DNA of 64,000 nucleotides from Marsupella aquatica (taxonomy: Eukaryota > Plantae > Marchantiophyta): assembly GCA_973895155.1 (NCBI GenBank), contig OZ316895.1, positions 1,376,312-1,440,311 on the forward strand, read 5' to 3'. The notes under the pieces were generated by a model. It was not told where the DNA came from. It searched no databases and was given only the letters and a program-made list of their open reading frames with translations. This document shows, piece after piece, positions 1,026 through 28,796 of this stretch (within the stretch, counting starts at the first letter, position 1; each line of letters opens with the position of its first letter). The translations under genes and the position numbers were made by a program.

Positions 1026-1451
1026 TGTCACACACATCAAAACATAAGCACATTCAAACAAACATAAGAGAATGACTACAAGTGAAACTCATGTCCCACA
1101 TGTCCAAAACGCACAATAATCTTCAATGAATCCGACAGCGATTGGTACCAATCAACGAACAATTAATCCCAAGGCATCTGATCCGATTATAGACGTATGT
1201 CAAGCCCAACGCACCTTGCACTCAAGGAATTAACGTTACATAGAAGGAGCTTTCAGCCACCATAGCCACAACTTGAGCTCCCCTCTCCAAGTCTCAACAT
1301 CAATATATAGCCTTTTGATGCCTCACAATGGGAGAACTACTCTCCACACAAACCTAAACTAAACTGAGCTATTGGCTCATATAGCACACATCCAAAACAT
1401 ACAAACCTAAATAGTACAATATACTACAATATCACCTAGAATTGTGTGACA
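1026..1451. mobile_element. Possible solo LTR of an unrelated family
   Basis: 9-bp terminal inverted repeat TGTCACACA...TGTGTGACA, 426 bp long. No matching TSD. Confidence 0.35.
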
Positions 1452-1620
1452 CCCTAGATGAGTGGATGGTGAGCAGAGTTGAAAGAAAATGGAAGAGATA
1501 ACCAACATTTTCTCCTTTTCTCTTTGCTTCATAGGACATACAAAATGCCTAAAACGATCTGACAATTGAAGGATATTACCATCCAATTTTATATTCTTAT
1601 GTTCATGATAACAGTTTATA

Positions 1621-1644
1621 CCCTAAACCCTAAACCCTAAACCC
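1621..1644 (+). repeat. Interstitial plant telomere repeat (CCCTAAA)3CCC
   Basis: Read directly; abuts the left subterminal region of the CACTA element. Confidence 0.85.
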
Positions 1645-1940
1645 CATTAAACGACTATTCAGTACCGTATAGGACTTGGAAACGACTGGGAAGGACTCCA
1701 GTCCTTTATAGGACTGCGAGTCGTATGTTTTGTTACTATAATCAACTGAGTCCTTTATAGAACTGGTTTATAAGTCGTTTAATAGACTGGATTTTCAGTC
1801 TATTTTAGTCTTTGTGTGGGTAGCTTTGGTGAGTCGTTTTCAGTCTTTTATGGACTGAGATGGTGAATCGTTGGGAACGACTAAAAAGGTTATGGAGGGT
1901 AGTCTTTAAATATACTTTGTGGGGTATGTATAAGTCTTTC
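1645..1940. repeat. CACTA left subterminal repeat array
   Basis: Many short direct and inverted ACGACT/AGGACT/AGTCGT/AGTCCT/AGTCTT motifs. Confidence 0.65.
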
Positions 1941-2440
1941 ATGTCAACTGGATATGAGTGATGAAGACCCCACTATACTACTTGGAATGAACCCACTCTT
2001 GTGCACAAATAACATATTGCATTCATGTTTTATTGTGTACTTGAATTAACTCACTCTATAAGTTCACCATTCATCATGTTAACATTAGAATACATAGTTT
2101 CAGAAAGCCATCTTCTATACCATGTACACTAATATGAATTCACAGATTCAAACTTCATAGACTACAAAGAAGGTCACAAAGTATTCCTCTATACCATACA
2201 CACTAATACTGAAATGATACAAAACAGATTCAAGTATCATAGACAATCACCATAGAGCCATAGTTTGACATCAATCAATTGTTTCATACATACAGAATTC
2301 AGAAATATCAATGTCACACACAACGGCTCCTTCATCCTCTTTACCAAATGGAAAAATTGGTACAGATATTTCTTGGATCTTTCCAAGGCAATGTCAAAAT
2401 GTGACACAATTCACATGATTCTATCTACACTTGCATTCAG

Positions 2441-5400
2441 TCACTGCAGACTAACACACTCTGATGGCCAGAGCACAAGAGATCCTACTGCATCTGCAAT
2501 TATTTCCTAAGGTGGATCATCGTCTCTATTCGGAAATGGCAAATTACAATCAGATACAATCACTGTAGTCAACAACACTACTACATGGTCATCCGGGACC
2601 ACTTTGCCATGGAATTTTGCATGATCCGGTCGCAAAATGCCTGTACCCACACATACCTGCGAGTCATCCTCCCATGATAGAAGATTATGGACTGGCTCTA
2701 CTGTGGCTATCACCTCCACCTTACCCTGGCTGTTTTTCTTGGCTTTCCTGGGTGGCTTATACATGACATTATTCATACCTTGGTTGCGAGTCATGACTTT
2801 GGCACGAGTGTTTTGTGCTGGTGATCGAGAATTGGCTACACTCTTCTTCAAAGAATCTGCATCCATATTTGACACTTCTGATTGTGTAGCAGGATTTCCC
2901 TGCGACATCATCTCAGTATCTGCCAACATTGTACTTGCCTCAATTGAAGCATCTACAATCTTACTTGCATCCAATGTTGCTCCCAAGTTTCGACGTCGCT
3001 TCACCCTGCTCCCACTTGGTTGAGAGTCTGTCAACTCTGCATCAACTACAATTCAGTGTCATGTCCAACATAAGTGAATCACTCATCACATGTGCTAAAT
3101 GTACATGTCACCAACCACAAAGTTGTCACTATCTCCTTACCATTATGAACAGCCTTCTTCCCCTTCTTTGCCATTGCCATATGCTCCATGTCTGCTTCTG
3201 TTGATCAATAAACACACCACAATATTCACGTTGAATCTATTAACCACTGAATTGTTGCTCAACATTCATATAGAGGAATTTAAAGCATCAGCTTACCTGA
3301 TACCTCCTTGGCTATGGTCACTGAGGCACTGGGCACATCTTCTTCATTATTGCTCTTTGAATCACCTGATACATCAATCATGATGTCACTTCAGATCCCA
3401 GTTCATCCAACCAGTTCTTACAGAAAAGATTACCTCCAACCGGGTTAAGCTTCACAAAACTCCATGCACTTTTCAAATGTAATGTACTGGATCATAGCAG
3501 GTTACCTGTCTCAGCAACCTTCTTGCCCTTCTGCTTACTGATTACAGGGTCCTTCTCTGCCTCCACTCTTCCTGCATTCAAACCATTCACTCAATTCATG
3601 AAAACTTACTTCTAACATTTGAACATAGGACACAATGAACAATGGGCCGGTGTCATTTCCATACCTGTGTCAGATTTGCCAATTCCCTTTTTTGTTAACA
3701 AGGGCACACTTTGTACAATGTTGCCCTCATTGTTTGGTTGGGAACCACCCAATTTTTCAATCACAAGCTTGAAATTAGATTCCACTGATGCAAGAAGGTT
3801 CGCTACAGATGCCTCCACAATATCCAAACGATCAGCCAATTTACTTTCCACTTGAGGGAGTCCACACTCTAATGACTTCAACCGTTCACACATCTCTGTG
3901 AGAGTTGTAACAGTTCCCTGTCATAACACAGCTTACATATCTCAGATAACTGTCCCCAAGAACTGGTTGCTTACTTCCTACTACATTTCTTTCTGATGCT
4001 CAAGGCCAAATAGTCACAGAACATACAGAATTACAACATAATCACCTGTTTGGAAGTTACACTTGTCACCTCACTCCTTTGTTTCATGAACTCCTCTCTC
4101 ACTTCTTGTGCTGATGGTTCTTCACCTGTCAATTTCTTCTGCAGTCCACATCAACATACATATGAATGAAACCAAGTGTTGATTGTCAATGAAAATGTAA
4201 TAATGGTAGCAAGATGATAAGTTTGAGGCTTACTATCAGGCATGTCACTGCCTTACCAATTGTTCTTTCACTGGAGCATAACTTCCTCTCCCAGCCTGTG
4301 AAAGGTGTTTCACTTTGCCTCGAGCATTTGACATCAGTTCACTCTTGCTCTGTCCAGCCTCCGACATGAACCCTTTGATTAACCGTGTCCATTGATCCAG
4401 TTCCAATGATGGGGGTGGTGGCATTCTCCTGTTAGAACCATTGTCTATCCACGTCCTTTTCAACCTATGCCTCTCTTGTTTCAAAATCCTCATTGCATAA
4501 TCTGATATGCAATCTTCAACTGGGCCCTTACCATCATTACCAACATACTCCCACCGTTCAAGAATGTCCTTGCAGATAGCAGCCCAATCAGCTTTGTTCT
4601 GACTCCTAAACTCTGTAATGCTCAAATCTAACCAACGCAATACTTCTCCTCTTAGGTCAGAATGCCAACGGTTCTTACCATCACATGTGGGAGTTATCCA
4701 ACCTTCGGAATTCACTTCTACTTTACCAAATTTGTTACTGTCTCCTGCCTTGGTACTCCCTGAAGCGCTACTAGGTGTCCCTCCACGGCCTGGGGTCCCT
4801 CCACGGCCTGATCTCCCCCCACGGCCTGGATTGCATTGTCCAAACCTCCTTGGAGTCCCTGCACATTTACAGGATCCATTTACAGTCACTTACATTAGGT
4901 AAGTATGAATCATAAATCCCGCTGCCAAATATACAGTGGACTTCAGAGCAATTCTGCAATGACCAAGTTACCTCTCCCTTGGCGCATAGATGGTTCTGGA
5001 CCACCTGTCCTATTGCTTTGTCTTGATGAATTAGGGGCGTTTCTCCCGCCTGTGAATGATTGCCTCCTATCTGAACGTGGATGGCCTTTGTTGTTTTCGT
5101 GATTGTCCCAATCAGAGTCTGCATACCAACAGGTACATGCCACACTCATGGACCTGTAAGATAAACTCTTTGCCCTAGCTACACATCAGATAAGTGCATA
5201 TTGAGCTAAATCTCTACTACCATCACAAAATCACTAGCACAAGGCACTTACTTGTCCAATCATCCTCCTCACCTTTCTATTGCCCTCTGTACCCGTCTCT
5301 ACCACGCTCTGGGTGTTCATATTCATCCCATCCATCTTCTGCTCCATCATAGTCATCATCATAATTATCAGGCGTCCCTTGCCAATAACTCTGGCTCCTT

Positions 5401-5620
5401 CTAGGGTATGGATTATGTGATTTCTCTCTAGCTGCCCACCTACCTGGGACTTGATGAGGGCCCTGTGCATCTTGCACAGGTGCATTTTTCTGTGAGCCCC
5501 CTGCATCTGGGTCTCCATCCATATCCAATCTTTCCTCTTCACCCTACTCTCCAAGCCCCATGTCTGTCTCCATGTCATCACCCTCTTCCCCCATAGCTTC
5601 TGCACAGCACCCACAACCAA
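2441..5620 (-). pseudogene. TnpA-like (Ptta/En/Spm and Tnp1-like domains), multi-exon; exon limits approximate
   Basis: 4245-4889 has RHRLKR..PPP..QW..LI...SE....S..M...R...GRGSY. 2507-3034 has FHG..VP..V..V.....LPFP and continues past an in-frame TAG (2507-2509) as EIIADAVGSLVLWP to TGA at 2441. RGG repeats near 4780-4830. Confidence 0.75.
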
Positions 5621-5771
5621 ACAGGGAGAATCAACACACTAAATTCAAAGTATCAATCAATTTCATGCATATCCAACTATCCTAAACATCATTCCAGGCA
5701 ACAATTCCCGTTCTGTGACTCTGTGCAGGTAGTCATCCTCAACCTCATACTTGCCAATCGCCAGCTGTTGC

Positions 5772-8700
5772 CTATTGCAAATCATCAACCTCATCATATT
5801 CCATTTGCCCAGGTTCATCATATGTCTCTCTCAATGTTAAGGGGATGTAGTCAGTCCATGCCCGAGTTGGAAGTACAGTCTCATGACTAGGATGCTCGAA
5901 TGCAGCATGGTCATCCAAACTGAACTCTACTTTACTTCCATCCATCCGCTTGTTCCGTGCTTGGCTATGGCATACCACCCTCCAGCCATGTGACTCCTCC
6001 ATATCTGCAAAGAAAGCCTGTTCAACTTGGCTAGGGAAAACAAAAGGCTCAGACCATTCTGGTACTCTGGACCTAAAATTGGCCAACAAGAACCCATCAT
6101 GATCACGCTTCATGGTGGCCCTTGGTCTCTGCCACTCTGATTTCACCCATGATCCCTTCATCAATATCACTGGGACACTTGTGTTACCATAATTCAACAC
6201 CCAAATGTCGGTCAACTCCCCCACGTAACCCATCTTCATCCACCCCCTCTGTTCTTCAGAGGTTCTCTGCTCAAACACAGAAATCAAACCACAATCATAT
6301 GATACACAATGGTCACCCTGCTCATCCCTCACTCGATAATGATTTCCATAAGCTCTCATCCGTTTGTAGGTCAGAATAGACAATCGTGGTGGCACAGATA
6401 GAAGATACAAATCCTTCTCCATATCTGGGTGATGTCTACTATGCTCTCGAATTGTCACCCGAATCCACTGCTCGAACTGTGGGAAGGGATCCTGCTGCCC
6501 AGAGTGTGCAGCTTTTTGCATATCATATTCCCTGCAATATGAGGTACAGGCATAGTTAGTCTAAACAACACATGACAACCTAAGATCACCCTTGGAACAG
6601 ACAAGAAGCATCACAACAAAGGCAAGTCAATTCAATCACTCACCTCCACCATGGTTGCATAGGCTCTGTGTTTGCCAGCACATATGAATGAGCCTTGTCT
6701 CGAATCGCAACAGGCAGCTGAACAGCACGTCCCACACCTTCAACAACCTCGCCACTCACTCCATCATCTTCACCAGATTTCCAAACTCTTGTCATAGCTT
6801 CACCAGACCCAGCCATGTACTCTGTTAGGAATCCCAACGTCTCATCCTTAATGTACCCCAATGCCATGGAAGCCTCTGGCCTGTAGTATGTTCTCACATG
6901 ACCTTTCAACAACTTCATGTATCGCTCCATAGGGTACATCCATCTGGTACTGACTGGCCCATACTGCCCTAGCTCTTCTACCACATGGATTAGGAGATGA
7001 GTCATAACATCAAAGAAAGCAGGGGGAAGTATATCTCCAAGTCACAGAGGACATAAGCAGCATCCTGCTTCAACTGCTCCAATCCTTGGGGATCCCACAC
7101 TTTCACACATATACGGCGAAATACATTGCACAGTCGAAGAATGACATTACGGACTGGTTTCTGCATGAGACCTCTGAGGCATAGGGGCAGAATGTGCTGC
7201 ATCAACACATGGTAGTCATGTGTTTTCATACTGCCAAGTTTATTCTTTGTAATATGCTTCTTGAAGGCACCAGCATAGCCAGAGGGCACTTTCAGACAGC
7301 TCAATCTATACAAGAATGTCTTCCATTCATCCTGTGTGCACACATAGGGAGCTTGGAACTTGAGAAGTACATTGGGATTGCTTGCATGGGGCTTCAACCA
7401 AAGGTGAGGGCGAATCCCCTTCTGTTGCATATCAGCTCGAACTGCTCCTGTATCTTTCTCACCCGACAAGAACTTCAGCAAGCTCTCACAAATATTTTTC
7501 TCAATGTGCATGACGTCCACATTGTGTTTGCTGGGCTCGAATTCCTGCACTCCACAAAGCAAAGAATTCAACAACAGAAACACTAATTAACCACATAGGA
7601 GGATTGTAACCAACATCAATCCACCATTGCTCCAATCTAAAATTGCAATCATACAGGGGCTGGAGGCTAAGTACATTACCCTCCAGTACTCCAACTCCAA
7701 GTCCATCAAGGTCTGTCTTTTCACACCGTGTTTCACCACTGGATCCTTAGGTTCTCGATCAGTGGCACTTCTCTTGTCCCAATCAGCCTTCCTGGCTGCC
7801 CACCTCAGGACTTGCTCTCTGGTGACCCTCTGTGGTGGGCCACGAAGCTCTGTTTTGTTGTTGAAGTGTGCAATTTGAGACCGTGTGTGCCTGTAAGGAT
7901 GATCAACAGGCAGATACCTTCTATGCCCCTGAAATTTCATACTGTGCAGGGCATGCGACCACTAACTTGTCACATTTTTCCCACATGGTGTGCACCCCAC
8001 ATAGCCCTTTGTCACTCGTCCAGATATGATGCCATGGCCTGGGTAATCTGCTATATCCAGCAAACAAATTGCATGCAGTCTAAAGGGGCTGGGTCGAAGA
8101 AGCCCCTTCAGAACATCATGGGTTAACACCCCTTCTATCCACAAAGTCTTCCACTCTTCCACTGCTGGAGCCAACATGATATCTATGAATTGCTCGGTCA
8201 CAGAAGCTGGTCCAGGGATTAACAGCACCATCATGACAAAAAACCTCTTTGTAGTCATCCATGGGGGAAGGTTGTAATTTAGCAGCGTAACCGGCCAACA
8301 TGAATAACGGTTGTTTTTGTCTCCAAATGGGTTTACTCCATCCAGTGATAGACCAAATCTAAAGTTCCGCTTCTCTACAGCAAACTGTGGCCACCTCTCA
8401 TCAACAAATTTCCAATGGTTGGAATCTCCAATGTGACGCTGCAGGCCATCACTGCTCTTGTTATCAGGAGTCCATGTCATCAGCTTGGAAATGGCAGGGC
8501 ATCTAAACAGATGTTGTAGTCTAGGAATGAGAGGAAAATGACGAAGAACCTTGGCAGGGTGTGTACATTTCCCTACATTTTTGTACCTGTGCTTACCACA
8601 ATGAGGGCATGTCAATTTATCTGCATGCTCTTTGCGAAAGAGAACACACCCATCAGGGCATGCGTCAATAGACACATAGTTCAGCCCAAGGTTAGACATC

Positions 8701-9482
8701 AATTTCCTAGCCTCGTACATATTTTTTGGAATTGAATTACCATCTGGTAACACATTTCGGCGCAGGAAGGTCAACAACTCTGTCACAAATATATTGGGAA
8801 CATTGTGATTGCCAGAGATGTTCAACAACAACACGACAAAACCCAGCTTGGAGCAGTTCGACCCCTCGTAGATAGGAATGCAAGCTTCTTTGATGTGTTT
8901 TGGGCCCCCAAACACCCACTCCCTCTCTGCTGCACCTTCCCCAATGTCAAAGTCAGGTTCAGCTTGGCCGTCGCCAATGTGTGGCTGCGGTTCATTGTCC
9001 TCTTCTGATTCCACTGTGTCGTAAAAAGCATCAAGGTCTTCAAAAATCTCTTGAACCATTCTTGGGACATCCATCCCACCGTCCTCAGTGACTGCCTCTC
9101 CATCTCCATCTTGGTCATCCACGTTCTCATGTTGGACCCCAGGACCATCCTCTGCACAGTCTATGTCCTGCTCTACATAGTCTCTATGCCTAGCTGTATT
9201 AGAATCCACAAAGTCAGCTCTCCACTCTTCATCAGAGGAGTCTTCTTCTGCTGGTACATTCCAAACCCTCCACCGAGGGTGCCTTTCATGCCGCAGCAGG
9301 TGAAGGTGCACAGTGTTCAAACTCAACGACTTGAATCCTTGGCACTGTGTGCATGGGCATCTCATCCTCCTACTCCTACCTTGGGCGGCCCGGGCTTGTT
9401 CACACATCCACAATTTAGAATCATGATGCCTAATCCTAAATGGGTTGTGAAGAGGCAACCTTGGAGCCATCACTATACACAC
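5772..9482 (-). pseudogene. TnpD/Tnp2-like CACTA transposase (Transposase_21, DUF4218, DUF4216)
   Basis: Motifs CPC..C, IDACP.GC.LF, DGVNPF, SCWPV, DYPG, DVMHIEKN, KTHDYH, WMYPMERYM, EPFVFPSQ. Introns 7545-7679 and 6532-6643. In-frame TAG at 7962 and 1-nt deletion in a C run near 7022. Confidence 0.93.
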
Positions 9483-9796
9483 GCACTCAGCACCCTGTCA
9501 TTTTATTATGCAAGTGAAAAATACACTTCCTGTTAAGGATTTCACCCCCGACTGTACTTGCCAAAATACGTAACGTTCCAAAAAAACAAAAAAACAAAAA
9601 ATATAGGTGTCTGAGTCATGTACCTATTCTCAAGTGAATGAGACAAAATTCCTAAATGTTTGAGGGTGTCAACTCCTCCGCTGTCCTCACATGTACTGCC
9701 TCTGCACGTACATCCATGACCATATCAGAGTCCAATCATGTATAGTCATAGACACAGGTGCCAGGTGCGAGACCGGTGTGAGATGTCCTCATCTTA

Positions 9797-10366
9797 CTAC
9801 CACATCAAATACGGATACCAATCCTGTTGTCGATGCCACTCAGCCCTGAGGTACTCAGGCATGTACATTAAGTCATCAAGGTCTAAACCCTGCTCATGCC
9901 ATGGTGGTCTTCGATCCGTGCCTACAAGCAGTGGCAGCAGTGCCCTCCATGGTGCACATGTTGCTACCAAGTCCCTCCACTGGGTACTAATTAGTCTATA
10001 TTTGCAGATATCTTGTGCGCCAGACACCACAAGAACCCTCGGCCAGACATGTGCAAGAACTATATCATCTGCCAAATCAGGCAACAAGGAACCACCTACA
10101 GCATCGTGCTTGTCTAACTCATCTGCTGAAAAGTAAATATCCTCTTCCGACTGTGCATCCTCATTCACCACAGCATTCACAACACATCCAAGGTCTGCAG
10201 GCATTATCTCGGATGGAGCTACACTCTGTCTGGTTACCAATCCACACAAGTAAGCCCAAGCAGTAGCCATGCACGATGCAACCCGTAGGAGGACCCTACA
10301 TAGGGCCTGACGGTCTGGAAGAGGCAGCATACCCACCAAAGTCTTCAGCCAAACAGAGCCCAGCAA
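9797..10366 (-). CDS. F-box domain protein (CACTA cargo)
   Basis: SLLPDLADDIVLAHVWPRV...CKYRLISTQWRDLV fits the F-box consensus. Start codon uncertain. Confidence 0.6.
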   Translation of the reverse strand: MLGSVWLKTLVGMLPLPDRQALCRVLLRVASCMATAWAYLCGLVTRQSVAPSEIMPADLGCVVNAVVNEDAQSEEDIYFSADELDKHDAVGGSLLPDLADDIVLAHVWPRVLVVSGAQDICKYRLISTQWRDLVATCAPWRALLPLLVGTDRRPPWHEQGLDLDDLMYMPEYLRAEWHRQQDWYPYLMW

Positions 10367-10506
10367 GTAGATTCACAGTCACACCCCACGCAGCAGGAAA
10401 CAACAATCACTCCAACTGCGACCAACCATGACAAGATGAGTTAGTTCAAGGATCACATTTATTACAAAATTGTGATTTATACAAAAATATGAGGGACTCC
10501 TACTCC

Positions 10507-11355
10507 TCACTCTCTCCCACCTTTGCTAAGCATACATCTCTGCTGAATCTTGGAGGGCCAGGCCTCAAAAATATCAAAGTCCCAAGCATTCTGTCGCTTC
10601 CCTCTAGCTGCTGATTCCAGAAGCCAATCAGGGGAAAGCACCCAAAGATTGTTGTTCATGACAAAATCACGCACTGTTGTCTTAAAGAATTTTCTGCATA
10701 TTTTCATGTATGACAGACCTACAACATGAGTGGAGGTTTCTGTTAGACTCTCCTCCACTGTCCCACCTAGCTCAACAACGATAGACTTGTACAATCTGCA
10801 CTTAGTCTCCCCAATTCCTTCTTCTGCAAATATCACACTGAACCCCTTCATAATGGTATTTCTCTCCTTGCCATGCTCATTCAATATAGCATCTGCACGC
10901 ATAGGATGGTGTCCTATGTTGACAACAGGTCCATATTGGACAGAAGCAAAGTTGGGTTTCTCTGTCGCTGCTTCATAGGCTTCCTTTTCAGCCAAAGCCT
11001 CTGCAGTGGCCTCCTCACTCTCCCACAACTCATATTGCTCAGTACTCTGTACACACCTATGTTTAACAGAATCGGTCAGCCAAGAGACTTCAACTACTTT
11101 TAGACCTTGGTTGGTAATGGCAGAATCAATGAAGGACCATGACCAGTTGTTCATCACATCCAGCCATGTCCCCGCAACAACATGTGTAGTCTGTGGAGTG
11201 ATGTCCTTGACTTCAGTCCCATGGAACTCTGAGAATCATTTTTGTACGATTGGCCAACTCACTTGGGTGAACCCATAGTGGCCAGGAATCAAAATGGCTT
11301 TGATTCCAGCCAACAGAGGCGGGTGATCAACCTTTGTACGTTTCCTAGAGGCCAT
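10507..11355 (-). pseudogene. Tandem BRCT domain protein (CACTA cargo), one in-frame stop
   Basis: ATG at 11355 (MASRKRTK). BRCT1: LAGIKAILI..HGTEV..TTHVVA..KVVEVSWLTDSV. BRCT2: MKGFSVIF..LGGTVEE..THVVG..LSPDWLLES. TGA at 11236-11238, probably from CGA. Confidence 0.8.
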
Positions 11356-11953
11356 GTACACACGGGCCACCTAATCACTGCAGACCGGAAGATAATGCGT
11401 TCACCTGATAATCGGAGGGCCCTTAAAATGCTGCGTTTATAACTTGGTCCAGTCCAGTCGTCTGGTGAGTCTCTGCTCCGATTCCAAACGGGAGAAATAT
11501 TGGGACAAACGTACTAGACACCTGCAAGCATGCACCTCATAGTTTGAATATGTGCCTTGACAATATTGAAGGTGACAAGTGCAATTGTTTTGTGATGCCA
11601 CATACAGATGTTGTAAATGGGCAGACATTCAATGAGAATAGAAAATGTTGGTACACTTTAAGGGAATTCTCGCAAATTAAATAGCCTTGTAACTTATATG
11701 CTCATAATGAGAAGTCCTGATTTAATTTAAGCAGTGTCATGTAAGTCGTGATCAAAATGATTGCAGAGTTAAAAAAGTTCCTAGAAGGCTTAAGGGGAGT
11801 TTTTGAAGGCATGTACCCAGGAACAAGTAATGAACTTAGGGTACTTGTTGCCTAAGCATCCTCTCCTACAGAGGTCCTTCTTCTCAAAATTGGAATGTCT
11901 GCAATCTCCAAGGTATCCACATCAGGTGCACTATGCATGTACATTATTCAGGT

Positions 11954-12634
11954 TCAAAGCCAAGAAATGTGATCTCTCATGGGAGTGTGCAAAGTAGGAT
12001 CTATGGCATGGCGATGACAATAGAAGATCCATCGATCAACACCATGTGCAGAGTGATGATAGATGTGTCTGTCACAAGCATAGCCTTCTGCTTGACGCTC
12101 CTTCAAACAATGAAAGTGCCACATGGTGGGACACCTAACACAGTGGACTATGTCCACCCAGAAATCTTCATCGTGCTGACCACATGCCTTGCACTTATGA
12201 AGTGGGCAAGCTGTGGCAAGATCGGGCAAACATGAAAAACAAAAGAACCTCACACAATATCTGTCAGGGCATTTCCTAACAAGTGGTGGAGCATCAACAG
12301 AGCCCTCATAAGACCCCAACTTCCCACACTGTGCACACTTAGCCTGCTTCTCCAAACAATCAGTGCACATCCAGCCTCCCTGGTGTGCTGACGGGAGGCC
12401 CACCCCTGGACAGTTGTTTTCTGCAGCAAGGTCAGACTCTGGGTTGAGGTGGAAATGCCTCATGCAAGGGCCCTCACATATGGCTAAGCCACCACCATCG
12501 TCACAAATGGCACAACAATGAGCTGCCTTCTGGAAAATCTGACTTGCGGAGAAGTTACTACCATCTGGCCCAACTACACCTGTGTTGCTCACCTCTGTCC
12601 CCCGCTTCTTGGCTCGGATTTTAGGGCGTGCCAT
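11954..12634 (-). CDS. EDM2/NSD-like composite PHD-finger protein (CACTA cargo)
   Basis: Intact 226 aa ORF: CAICDDGG.L..CEGPCMRHFH...W.C.DC...C..CGKLGS...V.KC...C.RFF...CPLHKC..C...C.RCP..WH..C. Basic NLS-like N-terminus. Confidence 0.85.
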   Translation of the reverse strand: MARPKIRAKKRGTEVSNTGVVGPDGSNFSASQIFQKAAHCCAICDDGGGLAICEGPCMRHFHLNPESDLAAENNCPGVGLPSAHQGGWMCTDCLEKQAKCAQCGKLGSYEGSVDAPPLVRKCPDRYCVRFFCFSCLPDLATACPLHKCKACGQHDEDFWVDIVHCVRCPTMWHFHCLKERQAEGYACDRHIYHHSAHGVDRWIFYCHRHAIDPTLHTPMRDHISWL

Positions 12635-13303
12635 GCCTACGCCTGAGACAGATAGTACAATTTAGTAGAGTGCACAGACAATACAATTTAGTGCAGTGTA
12701 CAAAAAGTACAATGTAGCATATAGACTAGAGTGGCAATTGCTACTGCAATGAAATGTTCACACACATGTGCAGAGTAGACATACTTTTTGGTTTATTGAG
12801 CCCACACTAAAAACTGATCCCCTCGTACAATAGCTCCACCTACACCTCAATTTTGTGGCTATGATTCACCAAAGGAGATCTGCAACAAGATTTAATGCAT
12901 TTGAATCACATATAACAGTCGTGACATGTAAAACAGGCATTTTTTGAACAGGATTGGTATCAAGCAGTGTGATCAGGGTTGTAATTTATACATCCTAAAT
13001 AGGCTATGATAGTGAATGAGACAAATAAGTTAGGCATAAATCACTTTTTCCAGGTTATCACATGGCCCATTAATTCCAGTCTTTGAAAGGAGACTTTTAA
13101 GTGAGCTTGCTAGCCTCTTAAATTAGGATATTGTACTTAGTGCAGCCATAATAGGATAAGTTATGTACTGTTGACCGTAAACCCTGGACCCAAAATTGCT
13201 CATAATTCAAAATCTTAAGTAAATATCCTCTCTGTTCAAGTCAAAGTGTTAAGTTATAGGTCAATGGTCTCTGGTCTGTGCATGCGGTGTGACAAGTGGT
13301 CTT

Positions 13304-13876
13304 CTACAGCGTGTGATCCAAACATGTGTAGACACCAAAGTGACCGGTGGTGGGGTCTGGGAGGGCAGGACAAGTGACATCGCCAGGCACACTGCAGGAT
13401 GGCGAGTGGTTCCAGATGATACATTGTGCTCTGTGAAAAAACCGACATCCAAGAGAACGGTCATCCAACTCTAGGCCAGAAGCCCTACAGGCAGGACAGT
13501 CATACTGGCAACTGTGCACACACCCTTGGGCCCTAATTTGTGGCGGGTCATGTACGAGAGACAAAAATACCAAGGATGTTGGGAAGGGTGGAGAAGCAGG
13601 TACAGGGCGGCTGTAGTTATTCTTGGCAACAACTGGGTACTCAAAGTACCATGCAGACTGGGCTGGAAGGATCCCAAGTCTGACATACTCAAGGCGCAAC
13701 ATCTCTGCCTTGCGTGCAAGCCGCACATGTTCAGCATTGCGGGTCCTCACCATAAGTGTTGCTTTTGTGGAGTGTCGTGTGTTCACGTCCTCTGATAAGC
13801 ACCTTCGATCAGCAAGGTGAGCAGGAGCTGTACTTGCCTCACCAACAGCAACCAACCTTAAATTATCAGTTCCCAC
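13304..13876 (-). CDS. Hypothetical Cys/His-rich protein (CACTA cargo)
   Basis: 190-codon ORF co-oriented with the other cargo ORFs. C-terminal CVHSCQYDCPAC..C..H..C..H..C..C cluster. No family recognised. Confidence 0.35.
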   Translation of the reverse strand: MGTDNLRLVAVGEASTAPAHLADRRCLSEDVNTRHSTKATLMVRTRNAEHVRLARKAEMLRLEYVRLGILPAQSAWYFEYPVVAKNNYSRPVPASPPFPTSLVFLSLVHDPPQIRAQGCVHSCQYDCPACRASGLELDDRSLGCRFFHRAQCIIWNHSPSCSVPGDVTCPALPDPTTGHFGVYTCLDHTL

Positions 13877-15295
13877 TCACTGTGTCATTCCATTGGTTCC
13901 AGCTAGGGGTCACAATGTAAACATAGCATGAAACACTCCTAATCAACTTGCTTACAAACTACAATATCCAGAAAGAGTGAAAGTCTCACCCTCCAGTGAG
14001 CAGCAGAGAGGTAGTTCACTGGATGTGTTGATGTGCAGTTAAACCTCCACTATTGCTTACTTCCGGTGTATGCTGCTCAGTCGGAGACATATTAGTAGCA
14101 GCAAATTGCAAATAATGGCCATAAGCAAACCGTGAGAGTTTGCAGAATGCTACGACAACTATTCATCCATCACAACAGTGCTCCACAGGAATGAAACCAA
14201 GCAAAATTTGGTGACCTCGGCCAATGACAAGGCCAATGTAGTTCACAATCCTTGACCGATCAGGATATGGATTGGAATTACAATTAGTCAGCTCTTCTTC
14301 TTCTTTGTTTTCTAACTCTGGGGCAAATGAGCATGACCAGGGAATTCTCTGAGAAATAGAAGTGCACAGGGAAAATGAAATTGGCTCATTGAGTTGCGCA
14401 AGACCGCCCACTGCAGCATAAACAAACTCATGAAGTGGCAGAAAGGATAGCGTCGCCACAAGCGCAAAATCCCGACAGGTTTAAGCTGCAAAAAACTAAC
14501 CCATCCAAATGTGATTGCAATGGTGTTGAGGTCGTCTATTCACCACCCCACTCCACCGTGGGAGCATTGGGCACAAGGCATGTTCGGATCCAGGGAGGAG
14601 CAAAATAGTCATGTGAAGCAACAAGTGTGGAGAGACCAATAAGTAAACAAAAATAGGGAAGAACAATGCGGTGATCTTGAGCAGCAGGAAACAAGGAAGT
14701 TGATTTGGGAGGGATTGTAGGGACAGAGCTTTTGGTGGGCTTGGCTGCGCGTTCATATCGGAAGATAGATGCGAGAGAGTGTGAAGAGGGTGGCAACCAA
14801 CAAAGGCAGTGGCAAGCAAGCAAGCAATACACGATGATAGCGGCAATCGGCAATGGCGGTGGGAGGCAGCAATAGGCTACATGACTATTCAGTACCAATC
14901 CGCAGCTCGTCCGATGAGAATGAGTGACATGAGGAAAATGCCAACACACTGACCCACTACCAAGAAGAACGAAAACCAATCTCAACCACCCTCTATCATC
15001 AATGACAGGACATATATTCAAAAATCCAAGCTGCAATTGACGGAAACAATAACATAAACAGAATTCTGAACATAAACTGCTCATGAAGCTTTCGGGATCA
15101 TATATTCCAAGAGCAAATGTGAACATGCCAATATATGAAAGCTCTGGCATATAGGGCATTGCATTCCATAGAGACGTCTGCACCAAAGAGCTTGGAAGCA
15201 ATTGCCTATCTGCTGGAAGCAGGAAACATATATGTAAATCCCAAGCCCATACTACATTGGAGATGATCAGCTCACTCAGACAGACATTGCATTTT

Positions 15296-15443
15296 GATTA
15301 ACCAAATGTAGCAGGCTAGCAGAGGGACGAAGGATAGGGCCAACACTAATGCACAGCAGTGAACAACTATGATTAACCAAATGTCAGTAGCAGGCCAGCA
15401 GAGGGACGGAGGATAGGGCCAACACTAATGCGCAGCTGTGAAA
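15296..15443. repeat. Tandem duplication, ~75 bp x2
   Basis: GATTAACCAAATGT..GCAGAGGGACG.AGGATAGGGCCAACACTAATGC.CAGC.GTGAA occurs twice. Confidence 0.85.
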
Positions 15444-17759
15444 GACTGACAAATAGAAAGCAAACGAGAGCTTCAAATATAGAACATCAAACCTTCAGCA
15501 GCGGTCAATGGGCTTTGATTTACAGGTCGCCTGGCTTGGTCCCTTGTCGCAGCTCGCCCAGCTCCACAACACCGTAGACAAGGAGTTGGCTGGTCCAATT
15601 TCCACCATGCAGCGTTAGCAAAACTGCAATGCTTGATCTTCGCCCTCCGCCCTTTGCCCGAACCCCAAAATAGACCTCAAAGTAGAAAGCCAGCAAAGGG
15701 TTGAGCAGAAATCCCTAGAAAATCCCGCCTCTAAAGTCCATTGCTCGTGGTTACAAATGATGGCAACGGAACATTCGGGCAACCCAACAGTTGAACTGAC
15801 CTCAATCACACCTGCACCTGGTTGGCAGCTCCGCAGACACTAATTGTAGCTCTAGTTGAAGACATCATTTGAACAGCAAATCAGTCACAGCTCATGAATC
15901 CGTTCAGACTAGCATCATGGGTACTACGTCGGAGCACTGCGCAAGAAGCCAGGAAAAAACTGCAAACATGGGGACCCACAGGCAAGAAATCTGGACCTCC
16001 GACACAATCTGGAAATCCTTTCGCAAACAACTGGCCCTCTCCTCAACAACTTGCGATGGTAGTAGCTCGCAATGGTAGCAGCTCGCGATAGTAGCTCCCT
16101 TCAACAAGCTTGGTAGTGCGATAGGAGCAACAACTTACAGAGAAGACAATGACCTCCCCTATGAGACTGATTGAAAGACCTCAATACAATTACTGAAGTA
16201 GGGATACAGAACGGGGAGAAGCCTTTCGCAGTTTGGGACGGCGAGAAGTGTGAACACTTAGGGCAGGGCCCGCAGGAAGGTCACTCAGTCCGAATGAGCC
16301 ACAAGCTTATCGCCCAAAACCACGCAAACCTGAAGTTGAAATTAGCACTATGAGGTAGCAAGCTACAAAATAGCATTTCCCACATTCTTAATGCATGGCA
16401 TCGGAGCTCATTCCGCCTAGAAAACCAAAGCCACTACCAAAACTAACTTGCAAATGGAAGTTTGGACTAACCAGGGTGATTCAGGGCAGTTCAATGTCAC
16501 TATGGCAGGTGCATTGCTGCTCGTAGCTGCAATGTACCTTAGCGCTCCCGGTCCCTCCACGGCTGCAACTTCCCAAGACCGGTCGGTCCTAGCCAGTCAG
16601 TCTTCTCTGAATCTTGGTGCGCCCACGTTGTCTCAATCCGAAGCTGTCAGCTCTCAGGCAGGAGACAAATCTCCGCTTGCCTTCGCGCCAAAAGCTGTCA
16701 CTGGCCTCAAGAGCCTCTAAGGCAATGTCCGCAACGCCTCAATGTCTCCAACACCTCAATGTCCTTACCATCAAGCGCTTCTCAGGGATGCCTCAATGTC
16801 CTTACCACCTCACGACTGTCAAGGTCCCAAACCAGCGCAAACAACTTGCTGAACTCCTTTGTCCAAACAATTGTAAGGGGCATGCAGGTAGAACTGTCAA
16901 AAGCGCTCGCAGGAGTGGATGGCAACAATTGACTACAATCGCCTCCCAGCTTCCCTCGCAAAATGTTAACCCTAAACCCTACTCGTATGCTCCACTCATA
17001 GAAGCAAAGCACAATGTTCTGTCGCACAATGGGGCCCGAACACATGGGCGCAAGTACTCGATAGTTCCCTTCACAAAAACCCAATAATCACCTGATGACC
17101 AAAGCACACTCACCCTAACCCAATACTTAGTGCAAGCAGTCATGTAAGCTTGTTTCCGTTGAGGTGACCCGTTGAGCATAATAAGTACGTTTGCGCCAGA
17201 GTGTTAGGCAACACACAAAACTAAAGAGGGTTAAGGATAACTTTAAATAAATCCCTTTGGTGACAAAGTCATGGCCACTTAATTAGTTGTGGGCCCCCCT
17301 AACCCTCCCCCCCCCCTTGTGGAATTAATCTTGGATCAAAAGGCACCATCATTTACACTCAAATCAATCAAGTTGTGGACTGTTCATTGTGTCAATTAGT
17401 GCCCATGACCCTGTCAAAACAACACTAGTTGGCAATGCGGAATATATCATGGTGTGGGAGTTGTACCTAGCTAGGGTTATAGTGATGCATTAGTTCCGAT
17501 TCCGGTTAGAAACCACCCTAAGCCCTCTAGTACAATTGTACCCTAAGTTATGAAAAGTACCCGTTACATGGATATTTACGATGCAATGTTAGTTAAGGTT
17601 GGTGATATATAGAAGGCATGTCCTTAAGCACTTAGACCCAAAAGTAGCATGTCGCCCGGTCCTTCTTAAGTATACTCTTATCATGAACCCTTGTAAGACT
17701 TTGTATTAAACTAGTCTTTGTGTGGACCTTTAGAGTGATTCCAAGAACAAAACCCATGA

Positions 17760-17957
17760 TGTCCTAGAGTGTTCACCCTTCACAAAGTAGCAAGGTTACT
17801 TTTCATAGTCTTTAACTAAACCGGAAAACACTCAAAGTCTTTTATAGTCTTTAACAAAACCTTGGCAATGGGTGCAAGTCATTTAAAGTATGGAAGAAGG
17901 ACTTAGTGGGCTTAGTCCTATAAGGTATGGTCTAAATTACCCCGGTTTCTACTAGTA
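17760..17957. repeat. CACTA right subterminal repeats and TIR
   Basis: AGTCTTT/AGGACT/AGTCCT motifs ending in CCGGTTTCTACTAGTA. Confidence 0.6.
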
Positions 17958-18044
17958 GAAAATTACTACTAAGTAGATCCTTAGGTTATTAGAGTCATTC
18001 TCTATTCATCTGGCAATATTTCCTTACAAATTATGTGTGCTCTA

Positions 18045-18419
18045 TGTTAGGTATTTACTTTTTTAGGTCTAGGGTTACAACATGTAACCCTAGTAAGTTA
18101 GGCTACCATAATCGGAGACGTGGTTAGGTTAACTAAGTTGCACACTATATCCTAAGCGGTGTTTGCTTGGATAAGTGGAACTAAGGCTCATTGTTACAAA
18201 GTCACTTGAGAGATAATGAGAGCTTACACTGTGGAGACTAGGTATGGCCGACGAGCTTAGAGTTCAATAAAACTTTCTTGTGTGTTTTCGTGCCTGGATG
18301 CAACCTCGAGGAGGTGAACCACATATCTCTTGTATCGACCACTTGTGCATTGGATGTGTCATGTGCTTACCATTGTGAATGTCGTCTACTCAATGCTCTA
18401 ATGTCGTCTATGCTCAACG
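18045..18419 (+). mobile_element. Degenerate solo LTR of the Copia-A LTR family
   Basis: TGTTAG...GCTCAACG, TSD CTCTA on both sides, homologous to 204-548. Short tandem duplication at its 3' end. Confidence 0.75.
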
Positions 18420-18766
18420 CTCTAAACATTATAACCTGCAATCTTATAATTTGTTTAAGAAATATCATTCTAACAGAAAGCCACCTTAGCCACTTGATTA
18501 TGGTGACCATTTTTCCTAGCAATGAGATGGGCCTAACCATGTCTTTGTGCACCTTTTTCATGTCAACATGTCACTCTCCTTGCAGCTTGCACATTCCTAG
18601 GCACCCTCCTTGAAATTCCAGTTGCATTGTTTACTTGCCAACTGCCGACAACATCCTATTGCCTACCATCTCACTTGTACTCGATAACACTTATGCTCGA
18701 CATCATAACACTAATAGACATTGGACAGTGATAAACAATATTAAGAACTACACTTATTATGAACAA

Positions 18767-19748
18767 CTAGCTCAATCCCCGTGTGTTGCACAAAAGAAGT
18801 TGTGTCGGCCAAGAGGTCGTGGAGAAAAAAAGATCTCGTGTCAGCCAAGAGGTGGTTGAGAAAAAAAGATGTCGTTTCGACCAAGAGGTCGTTGAAAAAA
18901 AAAGATGTTGTGTCGGCCAAGAGGTCGTTCAGAGAAAATATGTCGCCGTCAGTGACTGTAGGGCCGAGGCAAGTCGGGTGTCAAGAGGGGCAGAGGTTTG
19001 GTCCAGGCGTCCCAATTTAGAAGTTGGGAGTCGACCGTTTTGAGTCTGATGAGGCCGGGCAAGGATAGGTCCGGCACGGCGAGTCCAGGCAAGGATGCAG
19101 CCTTTGTTGTTGGTTGTCGGCCCCTCCAAAAGCCAGGCACAATGCGAGGGAAATTAGCGAGGGCAATCCGTGAGCGAGGGCAGTTGGTCGCCAGGCAGGT
19201 ATAGTCGGTCACGATGGGAGGGCAGTAGGTCCGCGGACAATAGTGGGAGGAGCAAGGCAAGTCCCACCTCGCGAGTCGGGTCAAGGGAGTGGCGAGGCGA
19301 GAGGCCAGGGAGTGGCGAGGTGAGAGGCCAGGGAGTGGCAAGGTGCAAGTAGGGCCGAGGAAGGCACAGGAGGCGAGTTGCAACCCGAGGGAGGGATGCG
19401 AGGTGCCACTTGCGAGGCAAGGCACCATGGGAGGCGGTGGAGGAAGTCGAGTGGCCGAGGGAGGGAGGGAGTTGGGAGCGAGGAGGAGGGAATTGCGGGA
19501 GCGAGGGGGAGGCCGGGACTTGGTCGCGGCGCGGTAGCCGAGGAGGGTCACGATCGGTAGTCGAGTTGTGGCCCAGCATTATGAGGCAACGTTTGCAGGA
19601 GCCGAGGAAGGCATAGTGGGAGCGGAGCCTCTTTGCTCCTATTGCTTCCTGTTTGTCCGGTTTTGGATTTTCACACCCTAAAATCCAAGCTAAATTCGAC
19701 GACCCTAAACAGTGTATTATAGTTTCTAATAGTAATACTAATATATGA
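18767..19748 (-). mobile_element. Possible non-autonomous Helitron
   Basis: A|CTAG-N7-CCCCGTGTGTTGCAC is the reverse complement of a Helitron 3' hairpin plus CTAG. Candidate 5' TCATATATTAGT at 19748 has an imperfect flank. GC-rich repetitive interior. Confidence 0.45.
18802..18945 (+). repeat. Minisatellite, ~36 bp x4
   Basis: Unit GTGTCGGCCAAGAGGTCGTTGAGAAAAAAAGATGTC with variants. Confidence 0.9.
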
Positions 19749-20196
19749 CACTATGAGTTGGGGGCATTGGGCTTCTCATTGATGATAAAATAAAGAGGCA
19801 GATTAACTAAGTAATTCACTATTTGTGTGACATACACCATATCTTTTTCCCCACTCACAAAATCAAAAGGGTATCTCCAACATTACTGGGTTGTGAAGTT
19901 ACTTCATGGGTTCAGTCAGGAAAACTCACCAACTCCTGAGGTATTGTGTGAAGCAGGTACTAGACAGGATATTTTGCCAGCAAGGAAAGCATTGCTAGGG
20001 GGTCACAGGAGTAGTTCTTAATGCTTGTTGATGTTTGCTAACTTCTGTATTTCTAGTGCTTTTCTAAGGCTTCATATGGCTAGCCAGTTAGCTTGCCAAA
20101 AGAGAAATCCCCCCCAAAATCATATGTACTACTAAATTGTGATCCAAACCTACAATGTAGGGCTACTGTCTAGCATGAAGCCTGTAGACCGTGACT

Positions 20197-20326: not shown

Positions 20327-20761
20327 CGCAGTCACTAAAGATTGAATGCAATAAACTAGATGAATGGAATGCAAGTCGTTGAAGGGGAAACCAATTGGTA
20401 TTACCATTCAAACCAGGACAATGAGGAGTAACCGTGCTAAGGAGCTGGCGATGGAGCTGGCAACCTGAGAGTGCATGGGAGATGTGCTTTTTTGTCCTCA
20501 CCTCTAATCAGTTTCAAAGAACTGGATATTCTGGCCAGTGACAGATATTTCAATATAGCATGTTTGTCCCCGAACATGTCTCAATTTTTTTGTCTTGTAG
20601 TGATATGTAATTTATCTAATTTTATTTATGATAAAAGAAGAGAGCAGATGTAAAGAACATACCAAGAAAATAATATATCTGAATTAAGAGTGAGTGAGAT
20701 AATACACATGCAAAAATAAGCACATAATGACCAGGAAAGTTGTGCATATAACTATATAAGG

Positions 20762-21093
20762 TGTTGAACTAAGACGTCATTTGCAACGACCATACAACCA
20801 TGATTCATTCCATGCACACATAGTCGACACAATCTCTACGTGGTTCACCTTTTCTCCAAGGCTACATCCACACGAACACTCAAGCTTTACTTCAAGAGTA
20901 GACGAACACACATGCTCTCTCTCTTCCTCCTGTTGCTCTGTTACAATGAGTAAGCACCACACACCAGCGGCTTACACTAGCCCTGGTATATACAAGGTCA
21001 CACACGACTAACCTAACCTCAGCTAAGATCCTAACTGTGGTTAGCCTAAGTGTCGTAACCTATGAGTCACAAGACTAAGAGCAATCCTTAACA
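20762..21093 (-). mobile_element. Solo LTR related to the Copia-A LTR family
   Basis: TGTTGA...TTAACA, 332 bp, perfect TSD TAAGG. Shares AGTCGACACA, TACGTGGTTCACCT and ATGAGTCACAAGACTA with the Copia-A LTR. Confidence 0.85.
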
Positions 21094-21710
21094 TAAGGTA
21101 CAAAATTTCACTTACTTCTAGGTAAAACAGTCAACTCAATTAAAAACATAGATTTTGTAAAGGAAACCATTAGGGGAACTTAGTACATCACATGTGCACA
21201 TTGTTCAAATAATTTCTCTCACTCTCATGAGAAAAGATAGAATTAACTAAGAGGGATTGAAAAGGAAAATTTAAACATTGACGAGGGGAGCCAAAATAAA
21301 TTCAAAATACTCTAAGTCAACTAAAATTAAAAGGGGTCCAAAATTTAATGAAAATCTAATTACTACAAATGATTCATCTTGTTAAGGCACATTAAAATCT
21401 AAATACTGGACCCAAAATATGCATAAGGTAAAACATGAAAGTTGGATTCACCATATAGCAATATTAGTGTCAAAATTTATTTCAAATAAGGTATTGGTTA
21501 GCTAGGGACTAAGTTTGTTAGGGAAGTGGTGTATGTTTAGGGTTTTTCTTCTATTTAGGAAAGAACACGGTGCTGTGATGTATTTTAAAAGAGGGTGTTG
21601 GGATGAATTTATTACTCTTTGATCACACTCTACAGTACAACTCCACACACCAGCTTATTTTTTAAGTGCAAATTTTGCCAAATTCCACCTCCCCCCGAAA
21701 TGGTCACCAT

Positions 21711-21886: not shown

Positions 21887-22495
21887 GATATCTGACGGTC
21901 ATTATTTAATTCAGGAAAATCTGGTTGAGAAGATTCCTAGAATCTACTCACTAAGAGAACATTGGCCACACTGGCTAAAAATAAAAAACCTTAAAAAATA
22001 CGCTGCCACACACCCACACGAGAATGATGCATGTTCCCCTTAGCAGCACCTGTTCATGAGAATCCGAGCTTTCAGTTCCTTCAGAGGTCCACTGAAGACC
22101 TCGTCTGCCCACGAATCATGATCCACTTGTGACAGTATCTTCTCTGCTTTTCGACACAAGACGGAGCAAAGAGAGCTGCCCACAGATTTGGTTCGACTCT
22201 GGAGGTCGTTGTCTCCTCCCTTCTGAGCCTTTTTTCGAGGAGCTCGAGTCAGTGAAGCGAGAGCGATGGATAGTTTAGGTGATGTGGACCACATCTGCTT
22301 CCGAATGTCTTCTCGTTGTCGGTGAAAGCTGCCAAGAATTACAGTGTCGGTCGATTCCGCACGTTCTGTTTGCTCAGGTGCAGACGGAGAGGGAGGCCTG
22401 TGAGGAATGCTTTGAACCTCGTGAATGATTCAACGGAAAAACTTAGCGGAAATCTACCATTGGAGTTGGTCAGCACATCCACATTCGGTACATTC

Positions 22496-25100: not shown

Positions 25101-26137
25101 TCGTCTTTAAGAACTTCACCGCAGGTGGTTTATAGGAACTTGTTATGAGATTAAGATCCGTAAGTAATTCTGTACAGATTGGGGCATGTTTAACCCATTT
25201 TATGATGCAATATGACAGTTTGCTGCAGTAGGTGGGTTTGTAAGGTATTTCCATGAATATTATGGTGGTTGAGAATTGTCTATACGTTTATTTGGGGAAT
25301 TGAAAGCACGTGGTATGGAATTCTAATGAGATGGGCCTATTCGAAGGTTCTCATTTCTGGTGGTTTCATGCATGGTGACGAACATTTGAAATGTTGATTG
25401 GCAAGCGAGGGAAAGAAGACAGAAAACCATGAAAGGATTCCTCTCCTAACAGACCTTTTCCAAACCATCTGGGCTCAAAATGTCGATCCGGACAATGCCA
25501 TGGATCTTTTTCTCGAGATTCTATCGGGAGAACGTTTGTACGCCAGCATTCTTCGAGAAGATACCCTATACAGTGAGAACGTTTGCGTAGGGTACAGTAG
25601 GAGGAGCGGCCACAAGTGGACCAACAATTGAGGCAAAACCATGAGAATTGCAAGTCTACTGAAAATGGGAAGTGGACAGACTACTTACAACAGGTGAGAA
25701 TTCGCTTTATGAGTCATTGTTGACTCTTCCATTTAAAAATTTGTTATCGTTAGTCCATTGAGGCACCGACCTCTCTGCTTTTGGGCAAAAAGAAAACGGC
25801 ATGGACCCTAATGTTGCCCTTCTGGCTGCCACCATTGCTCTTTCCACCTTAGGTACTCCTGTTCGGGCAGCCCAGAACTTCAGTAGTCAGTGCAAAGCCT
25901 ACACTGTCTACTGCCAACGGATTGAGGCAGTGGTGAATCAACAGCCACTACTCACAGCTGCCCCCACCACCACCTCCCGGCTAATTTCCTGACCACCTGC
26001 ATCCAAGTTTAGCTGCCTCAACTCCTCTCTTCACTCGCCTGTGCTTTGCTATCGCCTGCCATACAACTACTTTCTACTACCCTGCCAAACCTCGAACTCT
26101 CTTCCCTCTGCCATACAATACCGTCATCACACGTCAA

Positions 26138-28452: not shown

Positions 28453-28796
28453 TGTTGAGCATAGACGACATTCGTAACGGCAAGCCCATGAACCATCCAA
28501 CGCACAAGAGTCGACACAGAGAGATACGTGGTTCACCTCCACATGAGGCTACGTCCACGGCAACACATAAGAGTTTTACTGCACTCTAGGCCGACCGGCC
28601 ATACCAAGCATCCACAACACAAGCTCTCCCTATCTCTCAACTAGCTCCGTAACAATGAGCCTAAGTTCCACCAGGGTCTGGAATCAGCCCTGGCTATATG
28701 CACACCAGCACTACCGCTAACATTAGCTAAGTCCTAACCCGAGTTAGACTAACTATGGTTAGCTCATGAGTCACAAGACTAGAGCAATATCTAACA
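28453..28796 (-). repeat. Copia-A 3' LTR (344 bp)
   Basis: TG...CA termini; PPT AAGGGGGAGTT adjacent at 28797-28807 (minus strand). Confidence 0.95.

Follow-up and report, generated by a model that had tools for sequence, protein, structure and literature searches.

A four-gene cassette with a stand-alone EDM2-type PHD protein adjoins the transposase of a CACTA transposon in the liverwort Marsupella aquatica

A 64,000-nucleotide stretch of the Marsupella aquatica genome (assembly GCA_973895155.1, contig OZ316895.1, positions 1,376,312 to 1,440,311 of the forward strand; hereafter the window) contains a minus-strand CACTA element, a decayed member of a plant family present in very many copies. 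Four small, co-oriented open reading frames (ORFs) lie directly upstream of its TnpD transposase, and one of them encodes a stand-alone version of the composite PHD module of ENHANCED DOWNY MILDEW 2 (EDM2). Judged from sequence, the four ORFs probably form an accessory module that is host-derived, under selection, and working in heterochromatin. In window coordinates, and in the order in which the minus strand is read, they are as follows.

13304..13753, minus strand: Cys/His-rich ORF of 149 amino acids (aa) with 16 Cys/His; no known family
11954..12634, minus strand: stand-alone EDM2-type composite PHD protein of 226 aa; open, colinear with its relatives, basic N-terminus, ATG at 12634
10507..11355, minus strand: two-BRCT gene of 282 codons; ATG at 11355, premature TGA at 11238-11236 in this copy
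9797..10204, minus strand: small F-box-like ORF, 135 aa from the ATG at 10204; motif begins near 10087, further in-frame ATGs at 10270 and 10330

Arrangement and depth of the cassette

The four ORFs occupy minus-strand stop-to-stop frames of 190-242 aa (13304-13876, 11954-12661, 10507-11235, and 9797-10372). In 500 order-1 Markov resamples of the 4.1-kb region, no strand had more than one frame of at least 189 aa. The four compact, co-oriented ORFs that an earlier reading of the bare sequence (the original prediction) had described upstream of the transposase are thus present, and its claim that the PHD and BRCT proteins have their own ATG and a basic start agrees with the ATGs listed above and with the basic N-termini of both. 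It had also placed the cassette between a 5' terminal inverted repeat (TIR) and the transposase; the cassette does adjoin the transposase, but no 5' TIR was identified.

Part of the region 9500-14300 was contained in 11 public sequencing runs from nine studies, and four runs contained at least half of its words. None of the 13 runs listed was an RNA run with the region, which says nothing about expression. A profile of contig depth was drawn over 1200-19000 in four runs (X1, X2, X5, and X6), with the upstream region taken as 14862-17237 and the last three bins of the profile omitted. Summed contig depth is not copy number, and the runs were chosen by cassette content while the transposase side was not chosen; read in this way, median depths of the cassette, TnpD, the TnpA side, and the upstream region were, respectively, 150,738, 209,672, 207,363, and 7,131 in X1; 72,274, 57,828, 62,836, and 2,652 in X2; 107, 810, 129, and 11 in X5; and 132, 883, 3, and 1 in X6. 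Cassette depth was close to that of the transposase side in X1 and X2 and to that of the TnpA side alone in X5, and every cassette bin was covered in all four runs. Depth upstream of the cassette was ~20-fold lower. Because depth follows the transposase side of the element and then falls ~20-fold upstream, the cassette looks integral to the high-copy family, and it is likely an integral part of the element in near copies. Near-exact pieces at 18359-18828 had depths of 100 (X1) and 74 (X2); the depth ratio to these pieces would put the family size near a thousand copies, with the proviso that depths are not copy numbers.

A true element end between the transposase and the ORFs, which would detach the cassette, found no footing: the 323 bp from the transposase start to the F-box stop contain no CACTA/CACTG-type word, and depth does not drop there. 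Nor is the cassette unique to this copy, since relatives and near copies were found. CpG observed/expected ratios were 0.23-0.41 in the four ORFs and 0.31 in the transposase, and 0.65 at 22000-26000, a probable host gene region with weaker CpG loss. Given its strong CpG depletion, the family has not evaded methylation over the long term. The sequence has the look of a plant genome whose repeat fraction is methylated.

A stand-alone EDM2-type PHD protein

The composite PHD ORF of the original prediction was borne out and, by profile matches and alignment, narrowed to the EDM2 type. Among 47 candidates were five stand-alone relatives (220-245 aa), with identities of 81, 75, 54, 47, and 42%. A profile of this stand-alone family, searched against 1.84 billion representatives, gave 417 matches at E ≤ 0.001, of which the best 150 were listed and 20 were looked up. 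Among the best 150, the top matches are further short proteins, and long proteins come next. Several of the 20 clusters looked up carry the name EDM2 (Arabidopsis, Neltuma, Mangifera, Iris, and Selaginella); others are unnamed PHD proteins from liverworts, a fern, and flowering plants. The EDM2-named matches cover profile positions ~40-226, and against Arabidopsis EDM2 the ORF shows 32% identity over 193 columns, in which the entire composite PHD is aligned.

Domain trees separate the stand-alone proteins from the rest. The larger tree had 60 rows out of 140 (the short rows, two named EDM2s, and the first 48 of the remaining full-domain rows), and 10 of the 60, the stand-alone rows, fell on one side of a long branch with a Shimodaira-Hasegawa-like approximate likelihood ratio (SH-aLRT) support of 100. 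In a 32-row tree, the seven stand-alone rows were again on one side of a long branch (100/100); five of the 32 rows are labeled as liverwort paralogs, two of these labels without lookup. Both trees are unrooted. Within eight stand-alone rows, Cys/His positions were invariant at 23 of 39 sites, compared with 26 of 159 other positions, and the zinc ligands are kept in the stand-alone clade down to ~40% identity. These are signs of purifying selection on the PHD protein at the level of protein conservation. Kinship over all fingers with the zinc ligands kept makes this an EDM2-type module. It is not a full EDM2, which would also have an N-terminal DNMT1-RFD and a long C-terminal region; the ORF is PHD only. 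Assigning the reader domain to the EDM2 type strengthens the idea that the element reads heterochromatin.

The stand-alone family also departs from EDM2 within the module. One ligand is Cys in all eight stand-alone rows and His in all eight EDM2-family rows. In addition, ~22 residues are deleted, and the acidic run that precedes the first finger of EDM2 is replaced by a basic run. Among 38 short rows, 22 are nearer to this ORF than to EDM2, eight of them full length and 14 truncated or frame-broken; the latter fit decayed mobile copies, and in part could be contig ends. Five other short proteins (P0036, P0039, P0049, P0058, and P0071), each consisting largely of an EDM2-type PHD, are nearer to EDM2 than to the stand-alone family and may represent separate truncations or captures. 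Metagenome scans with the PHD alignment and with the transposase returned no loci, and viral scans that used the PHD and BRCT alignments likewise gave none.

The Cys/His-rich, BRCT, and F-box-like ORFs

The coding part of the Cys/His-rich frame is most likely 13753-13304 and not the full 13304-13876. This ORF had no homologue among 236 candidates, no match in Atlas, and nothing meaningful in Pfam or PDB; its product is likely metal-binding. Its AlphaFold model was poor (predicted local distance difference test [pLDDT] score of 42). We considered whether it could be a diverged PHD finger and found no support for this (hhalign probability 0.1; −4.4 bits, below many of 500 shuffles). Evidence that it is a gene came from variation among copies: of the 40 variants listed out of 60, 28 lay within the ORF. 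Thirteen of the 28 are synonymous, compared with 7.1 expected (p = 0.011, which is only a guide because variants share ancestry), whereas the other two frames gave p = 0.90 and 0.74. None of the 28 creates a stop or alters a Cys or His, the listed indels (13288, 13766, and 13772) are all just outside the ORF, and a rough ratio of nonsynonymous to synonymous substitution rates is 0.36. The Cys/His-rich ORF behaves as a gene and shows signs of purifying selection.

Pfam recognized BRCT in two stretches of the third ORF (E 2e-11; the first repeat alone is under the cut-off, E 0.0037), making its product a two-BRCT protein. The tandem BRCT ORF that had been predicted therefore stands in its two BRCT stretches and basic N-terminus, but the gene is broken in this copy by the in-frame TGA at codon 40, where the intact relative P0006 carries Arg. 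P0006 (294 aa), the one BRCT relative among 297 candidates, shares 164 of 276 aligned residues (59%) with it, the pre-stop part included, a sign of purifying selection on the BRCT protein. The nearest solved structures for the BRCT profile were DNA ligase 4 (E 0.002) and BRCA1 (E 0.036), matches too weak to name a donor. The two repeats are ~55 residues apart with a predicted helical linker, and the AlphaFold model of P0006 was unusable (pLDDT 34). The transposase is in an equally broken state, so the stop reflects decay of the whole copy.

The indications of selection so far come from DNA variants in one ORF and from protein conservation in two. Neutral evolution of the cassette is not indicated, given the synonymous excess in the Cys/His-rich ORF and the kept Cys/His positions of the PHD protein.

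For the F-box-like ORF, homologue evidence comes from Pfam, Atlas, and PDB. In Atlas, F-box clusters scored 0.92 and 0.90 (recognition 2466), alongside three clusters without a name (122-140 aa; 0.92-0.95), and the sole PDB match was an F-box/WD protein (E 1.3). The F-box that had been predicted is likely, but the call is weak, with a Pfam score under the cut-off. Some copies lack 43 nt (10122-10164) upstream of the F-box motif and have, in that form, an in-frame ATG at 10187; both forms have an in-frame ATG (10204 or 10187), and either is a candidate start of this ORF. Treating the 43-nt skip as an intron was rejected: its length equals that of a nearby GT-AG stretch, but the reported ends differ, and we read it as a DNA indel. 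None of the cassette ORFs had a Pfam match to VANC or Ulp1.

The transposase side and the ends of the element

The remaining features of the element are listed below.

5772..9473, minus strand: CACTA TnpD/Tnp2 transposase, pseudogene (Pfam)
2507..4889, minus strand: TnpA-like multi-exon gene downstream of the transposase (weak Pfam Transposase_24; exon bounds provisional)
1620..1940, no strand assigned: probable 3' end region, with a telomere-like 7-bp repeat followed by clustered short, putatively subterminal repeats
14268..17240, no strand assigned: lower-depth upstream region, drawn from depth; 5' end of the element not located

The transposase matches Pfam Transposase_21 (E 3e-47), DUF4218 (E 3e-22), DUF4216 (E 1e-5), and Transpos_assoc (E 6e-4). 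Together, Transposase_21, DUF4218, and DUF4216 identify a Tnp2/TnpD transposase of the CACTA/En-Spm type, though the ORF is broken. Its frame has in-frame stops and changes near 7021, where other copies have an extra base, and this copy is therefore dead. Part of the TnpA-like gene (4248-4889) matches Transposase_24 (Ptta/En/Spm) at E 0.013, under the cut-off.

At the probable 3' end, 3.6 copies of the telomere-like unit (1620-1644) abut the end, followed by a cluster of short repeats (~1650-1940) that would act as subterminal repeats; depth climbs within this region. The other end showed no counterpart cluster, and no CACTA terminus was recognized within 1620-1940. The window holds no paired CACTA/G TIRs with a matching 3-bp target-site duplication, nor a second match to the 3'-end sequence near 1642 with up to three mismatches allowed, and the ends of the element may have been lost or interrupted. 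A 14-nt direct match between 1653 and 14883 was at chance level (E 0.65). A CACTA-terminus-like 10-mer at 20593-20602 is the one exact match and has no partner in the window; one-mismatch matches (3, compared with 4.4 expected) are at chance level. This lone minus-strand 10-mer lies outside the read-depth stretch 1200-19000 and could be the interrupted 5' end of this element or of another one.

Upstream of the cassette, the region 14268-17240 had no Pfam match above the cut-off in five frames. Depth drops stepwise there, and pieces at 15665-16088 match contigs at depths of 1,200-2,800 with zero differences, which suggests that a small, young subfamily has a 5' region of its own. Farther upstream, 18768-19750 has, by its end motifs, the look of a minus-strand non-autonomous Helitron, with 36-bp tandem repeats at 18792-18945. 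Long terminal repeat (LTR)-like sequences at 306-548, ~17800-18400, 20760-21100, and 28450-28800 are related, 70-92% alike, and in both orientations, with one upstream of the cassette. At 41500-64000 are several kilobase-long direct and inverted repeats with 98-99% identity, very recent copies of another element.

Proposed function of the cassette and alternatives

We favor, at about even chances, the reading that the four genes are an accessory kit that helps the element to be expressed and to move within chromatin methylated at histone H3 lysine 9 (H3K9). EDM2 is reported to bind dimethylated H3K9 (H3K9me2) and, with ASI1/IBM2 and AIPP1/EDM3, to favor full-length transcripts across heterochromatic transposable elements (PMC7529245, PMC4980392, PMC9292364, PMC10241880), and silencing of some transposable elements is described as altered in edm2 mutants (PMC3632883). 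In the proposed scheme, the small PHD protein (mini-PHD) would keep the EDM2 reader with all other EDM2 domains lost, and would bind H3K9-methylated nucleosomes on the element's own copies. There it may displace host readers or act as a decoy for them, which would allow transcription of the multi-exon TnpD/TnpA unit. The F-box-like protein might hand one of the host's silencing factors to SCF, the BRCT protein might scaffold repair proteins at excision or insertion breaks, and the Cys/His-rich protein could be an additional zinc-binding adaptor. On this view, the four genes would be expressed and would act jointly as one module. A reader-only protein on marked nucleosomes, with the F-box-like and BRCT proteins as putative degradation and repair adaptors, is a scheme that we hold to be as probable as its contrary. 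A preprint reports that TnpA activates Spm through ROS1-type DNA demethylases with H3K9 methylation retained (10.64898/2026.08.24.746577); since Spm activated in this way keeps the mark, an H3K9me reader could be useful to the element. A bolder form of this reading is tentative and somewhat doubtful: a chromatin-warfare cassette in which the EDM2-derived reader would occupy H3K9me2 nucleosomes and shut out or redirect host silencing and RNA-processing readers, the F-box protein would destroy a silencing factor, the BRCT protein would be a scaffold for break repair, and the fourth gene would provide a new zinc-binding protein.

Several points weigh against this functional reading and the linkage that underlies it. 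The ligand swap, the loss of ~22 residues, and the change from an acidic to a basic N-terminus mean that the mark read by the mini-PHD may differ from that of EDM2. The Pfam F-box score is 13.3 bits, compared with a cut-off of 20.5 (E 0.083). The TnpA side has almost no depth in X6 (median 3.2), where the cassette median of 132 comes from a few bins; the depth figures in general do not measure copy number, and cassette content was the basis for choosing the runs. No listed contig bridges the transposase and the cassette, save for one weak deletion joint (7094 to 13315, with a 22-nt side), and CACTA linkage and conserved order are shown for near copies only, by depth only. The variant test covers 28 variants among 40 rows listed of 60, and these are not independent. 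The three listed copy variants in the PHD and BRCT genes are all nonsynonymous.

Chromovirus chromodomains are thought to tether integration to heterochromatin, and the cassette could similarly be a targeting kit, with the PHD protein holding the transpososome at heterochromatin, where new insertions would do little harm, and the BRCT protein providing a link to break repair. The reader-only architecture with its basic N-terminus, the DNA ligase 4 and BRCA1 matches of the BRCT profile, and the strong CpG depletion of the family are in keeping with this, and safe insertion would suit the very high apparent copy number. However, this copy lies within ~8 kb of the apparent host gene at 22-26 kb, and an F-box protein is not needed for targeting; we regard this alternative as unlikely.

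It is distinctly unlikely, in our view, that the genes are real and selected but do unrelated jobs and were gained at different times, the apparent module being a feature of this subfamily alone. Such independent captures would fit the uneven reach of the homologues (the PHD family spans many clusters to ~40% identity, BRCT has one cluster, and the Cys/His-rich ORF has none) and the uneven depth across the cassette in X6. The former comparison is colored by unequal search sensitivity, which was word-indexed for the BRCT and Cys/His-rich ORFs, full HMMER for the PHD ORF, and none for the F-box ORF, and the latter is set against the coverage of all cassette bins in all four runs.

Capture of host sequence by Pack-CACTA elements is known, and pseudogenization is described as the commonest fate of captured sequence (PMC13317346). 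The cassette could accordingly be passive cargo, host fragments captured once, amplified by hitch-hiking, and without function for the element, and the stop in the BRCT gene of this copy would be expected. That stop fits copy-wide decay equally, as the transposase is just as broken, and passive cargo does not sit well with a PHD clade on a long branch with conserved zinc ligands, a start of its own, and a stop right after the domain, or with the synonymous excess in the Cys/His-rich ORF; we consider it very unlikely. Least probable of all is that the cassette belongs to a nested element or endogenized virus segment abutting the transposase: the virus-like layout of small intronless genes, the lack of a 5' TIR in the window, and the LTR-like and Helitron-like insertions farther upstream are outweighed by the 323-bp gap with its continuous depth and no CACTA/CACTG-type word, the shared strand and CpG loss of cassette and transposase, and a PHD donor family that is a plant gene.

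Relation to known systems and significance

The favored reading, an accessory kit for life in H3K9-methylated chromatin, has partial parallels. The mini-PHD resembles EDM2, the PHD subunit of the ASI1-AIPP1-EDM2 complex, in the alignment of the whole composite PHD at 32% identity with zinc ligands kept. It differs in size (226 aa, compared with ~1,300 aa), in having no DNMT1-RFD or C-terminal methyltransferase-like part, in the His-to-Cys ligand swap, the ~22-residue deletion, and the basic N-terminus, and in being transposon-borne. In VANDAL elements, which are Mutator-like, VANC was probably captured from the host chromatin regulator MAIN (PMC13547354), and the KIU/Ulp1 accessory genes are reported to be kept by selection (PMC13317346). 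These, too, are extra transposon genes, probably taken from a host chromatin regulator and kept by selection, but in another superfamily; VANC is a sequence-specific DNA-binding factor, whereas the protein here has a histone-reader fold and its anti-silencing role is putative. En/Spm TnpA belongs to the same superfamily as our element and is an anti-silencing factor whose C-terminal domain is said to resemble host NDX (PMC13547354). Here, in contrast, the cassette genes stand apart from the TnpD/TnpA unit and lie upstream of it, and the element has a TnpA-like gene of its own. Some fungal EnSpm and Plavaka elements, CACTA-clade elements with an added epigenetic gene, carry a TET/JBP gene thought to help escape silencing (PMC12730594). 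Their cargo is an enzyme in fungi, whereas we find predicted non-enzymatic readers and adaptors in a plant. Pack-CACTA cargo typically consists of recent gene fragments in non-autonomous elements. Our element resembles Pack-CACTA in being a CACTA with host-derived sequence (PMC13317346), but its cargo is deeply diverged, with its own start and stop, selected, and beside full transposase genes. By analogy, the cassette would work like the VANC, Ulp1/KIU, and TET/JBP genes while belonging to none of these systems. The original prediction knew of no described CACTA with this gene combination. Our search of titles and abstract beginnings, with Repbase and subscription journals outside it, agrees with this, as it found no description of a CACTA with this cargo or of a transposon-encoded EDM2.

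Transposon counter-silencers known so far are either DNA-motif binders (VANC and TnpA) or enzymes (TET/JBP). Retention, under selection, of an EDM2 histone-reading module by a transposon points to a different counter-silencing route. If the chromatin-warfare form of our reading is true, the cassette would represent the first case of a DNA transposon using a histone reader against silencing, and it could explain a thousand-fold amplification of the family. The mini-PHD is also a small natural protein with which mark reading by EDM2-type PHD fingers can be studied. More broadly, the cassette suggests that the unannotated small ORFs of CACTA elements in large-genome plants hold a largely unseen set of accessory genes.

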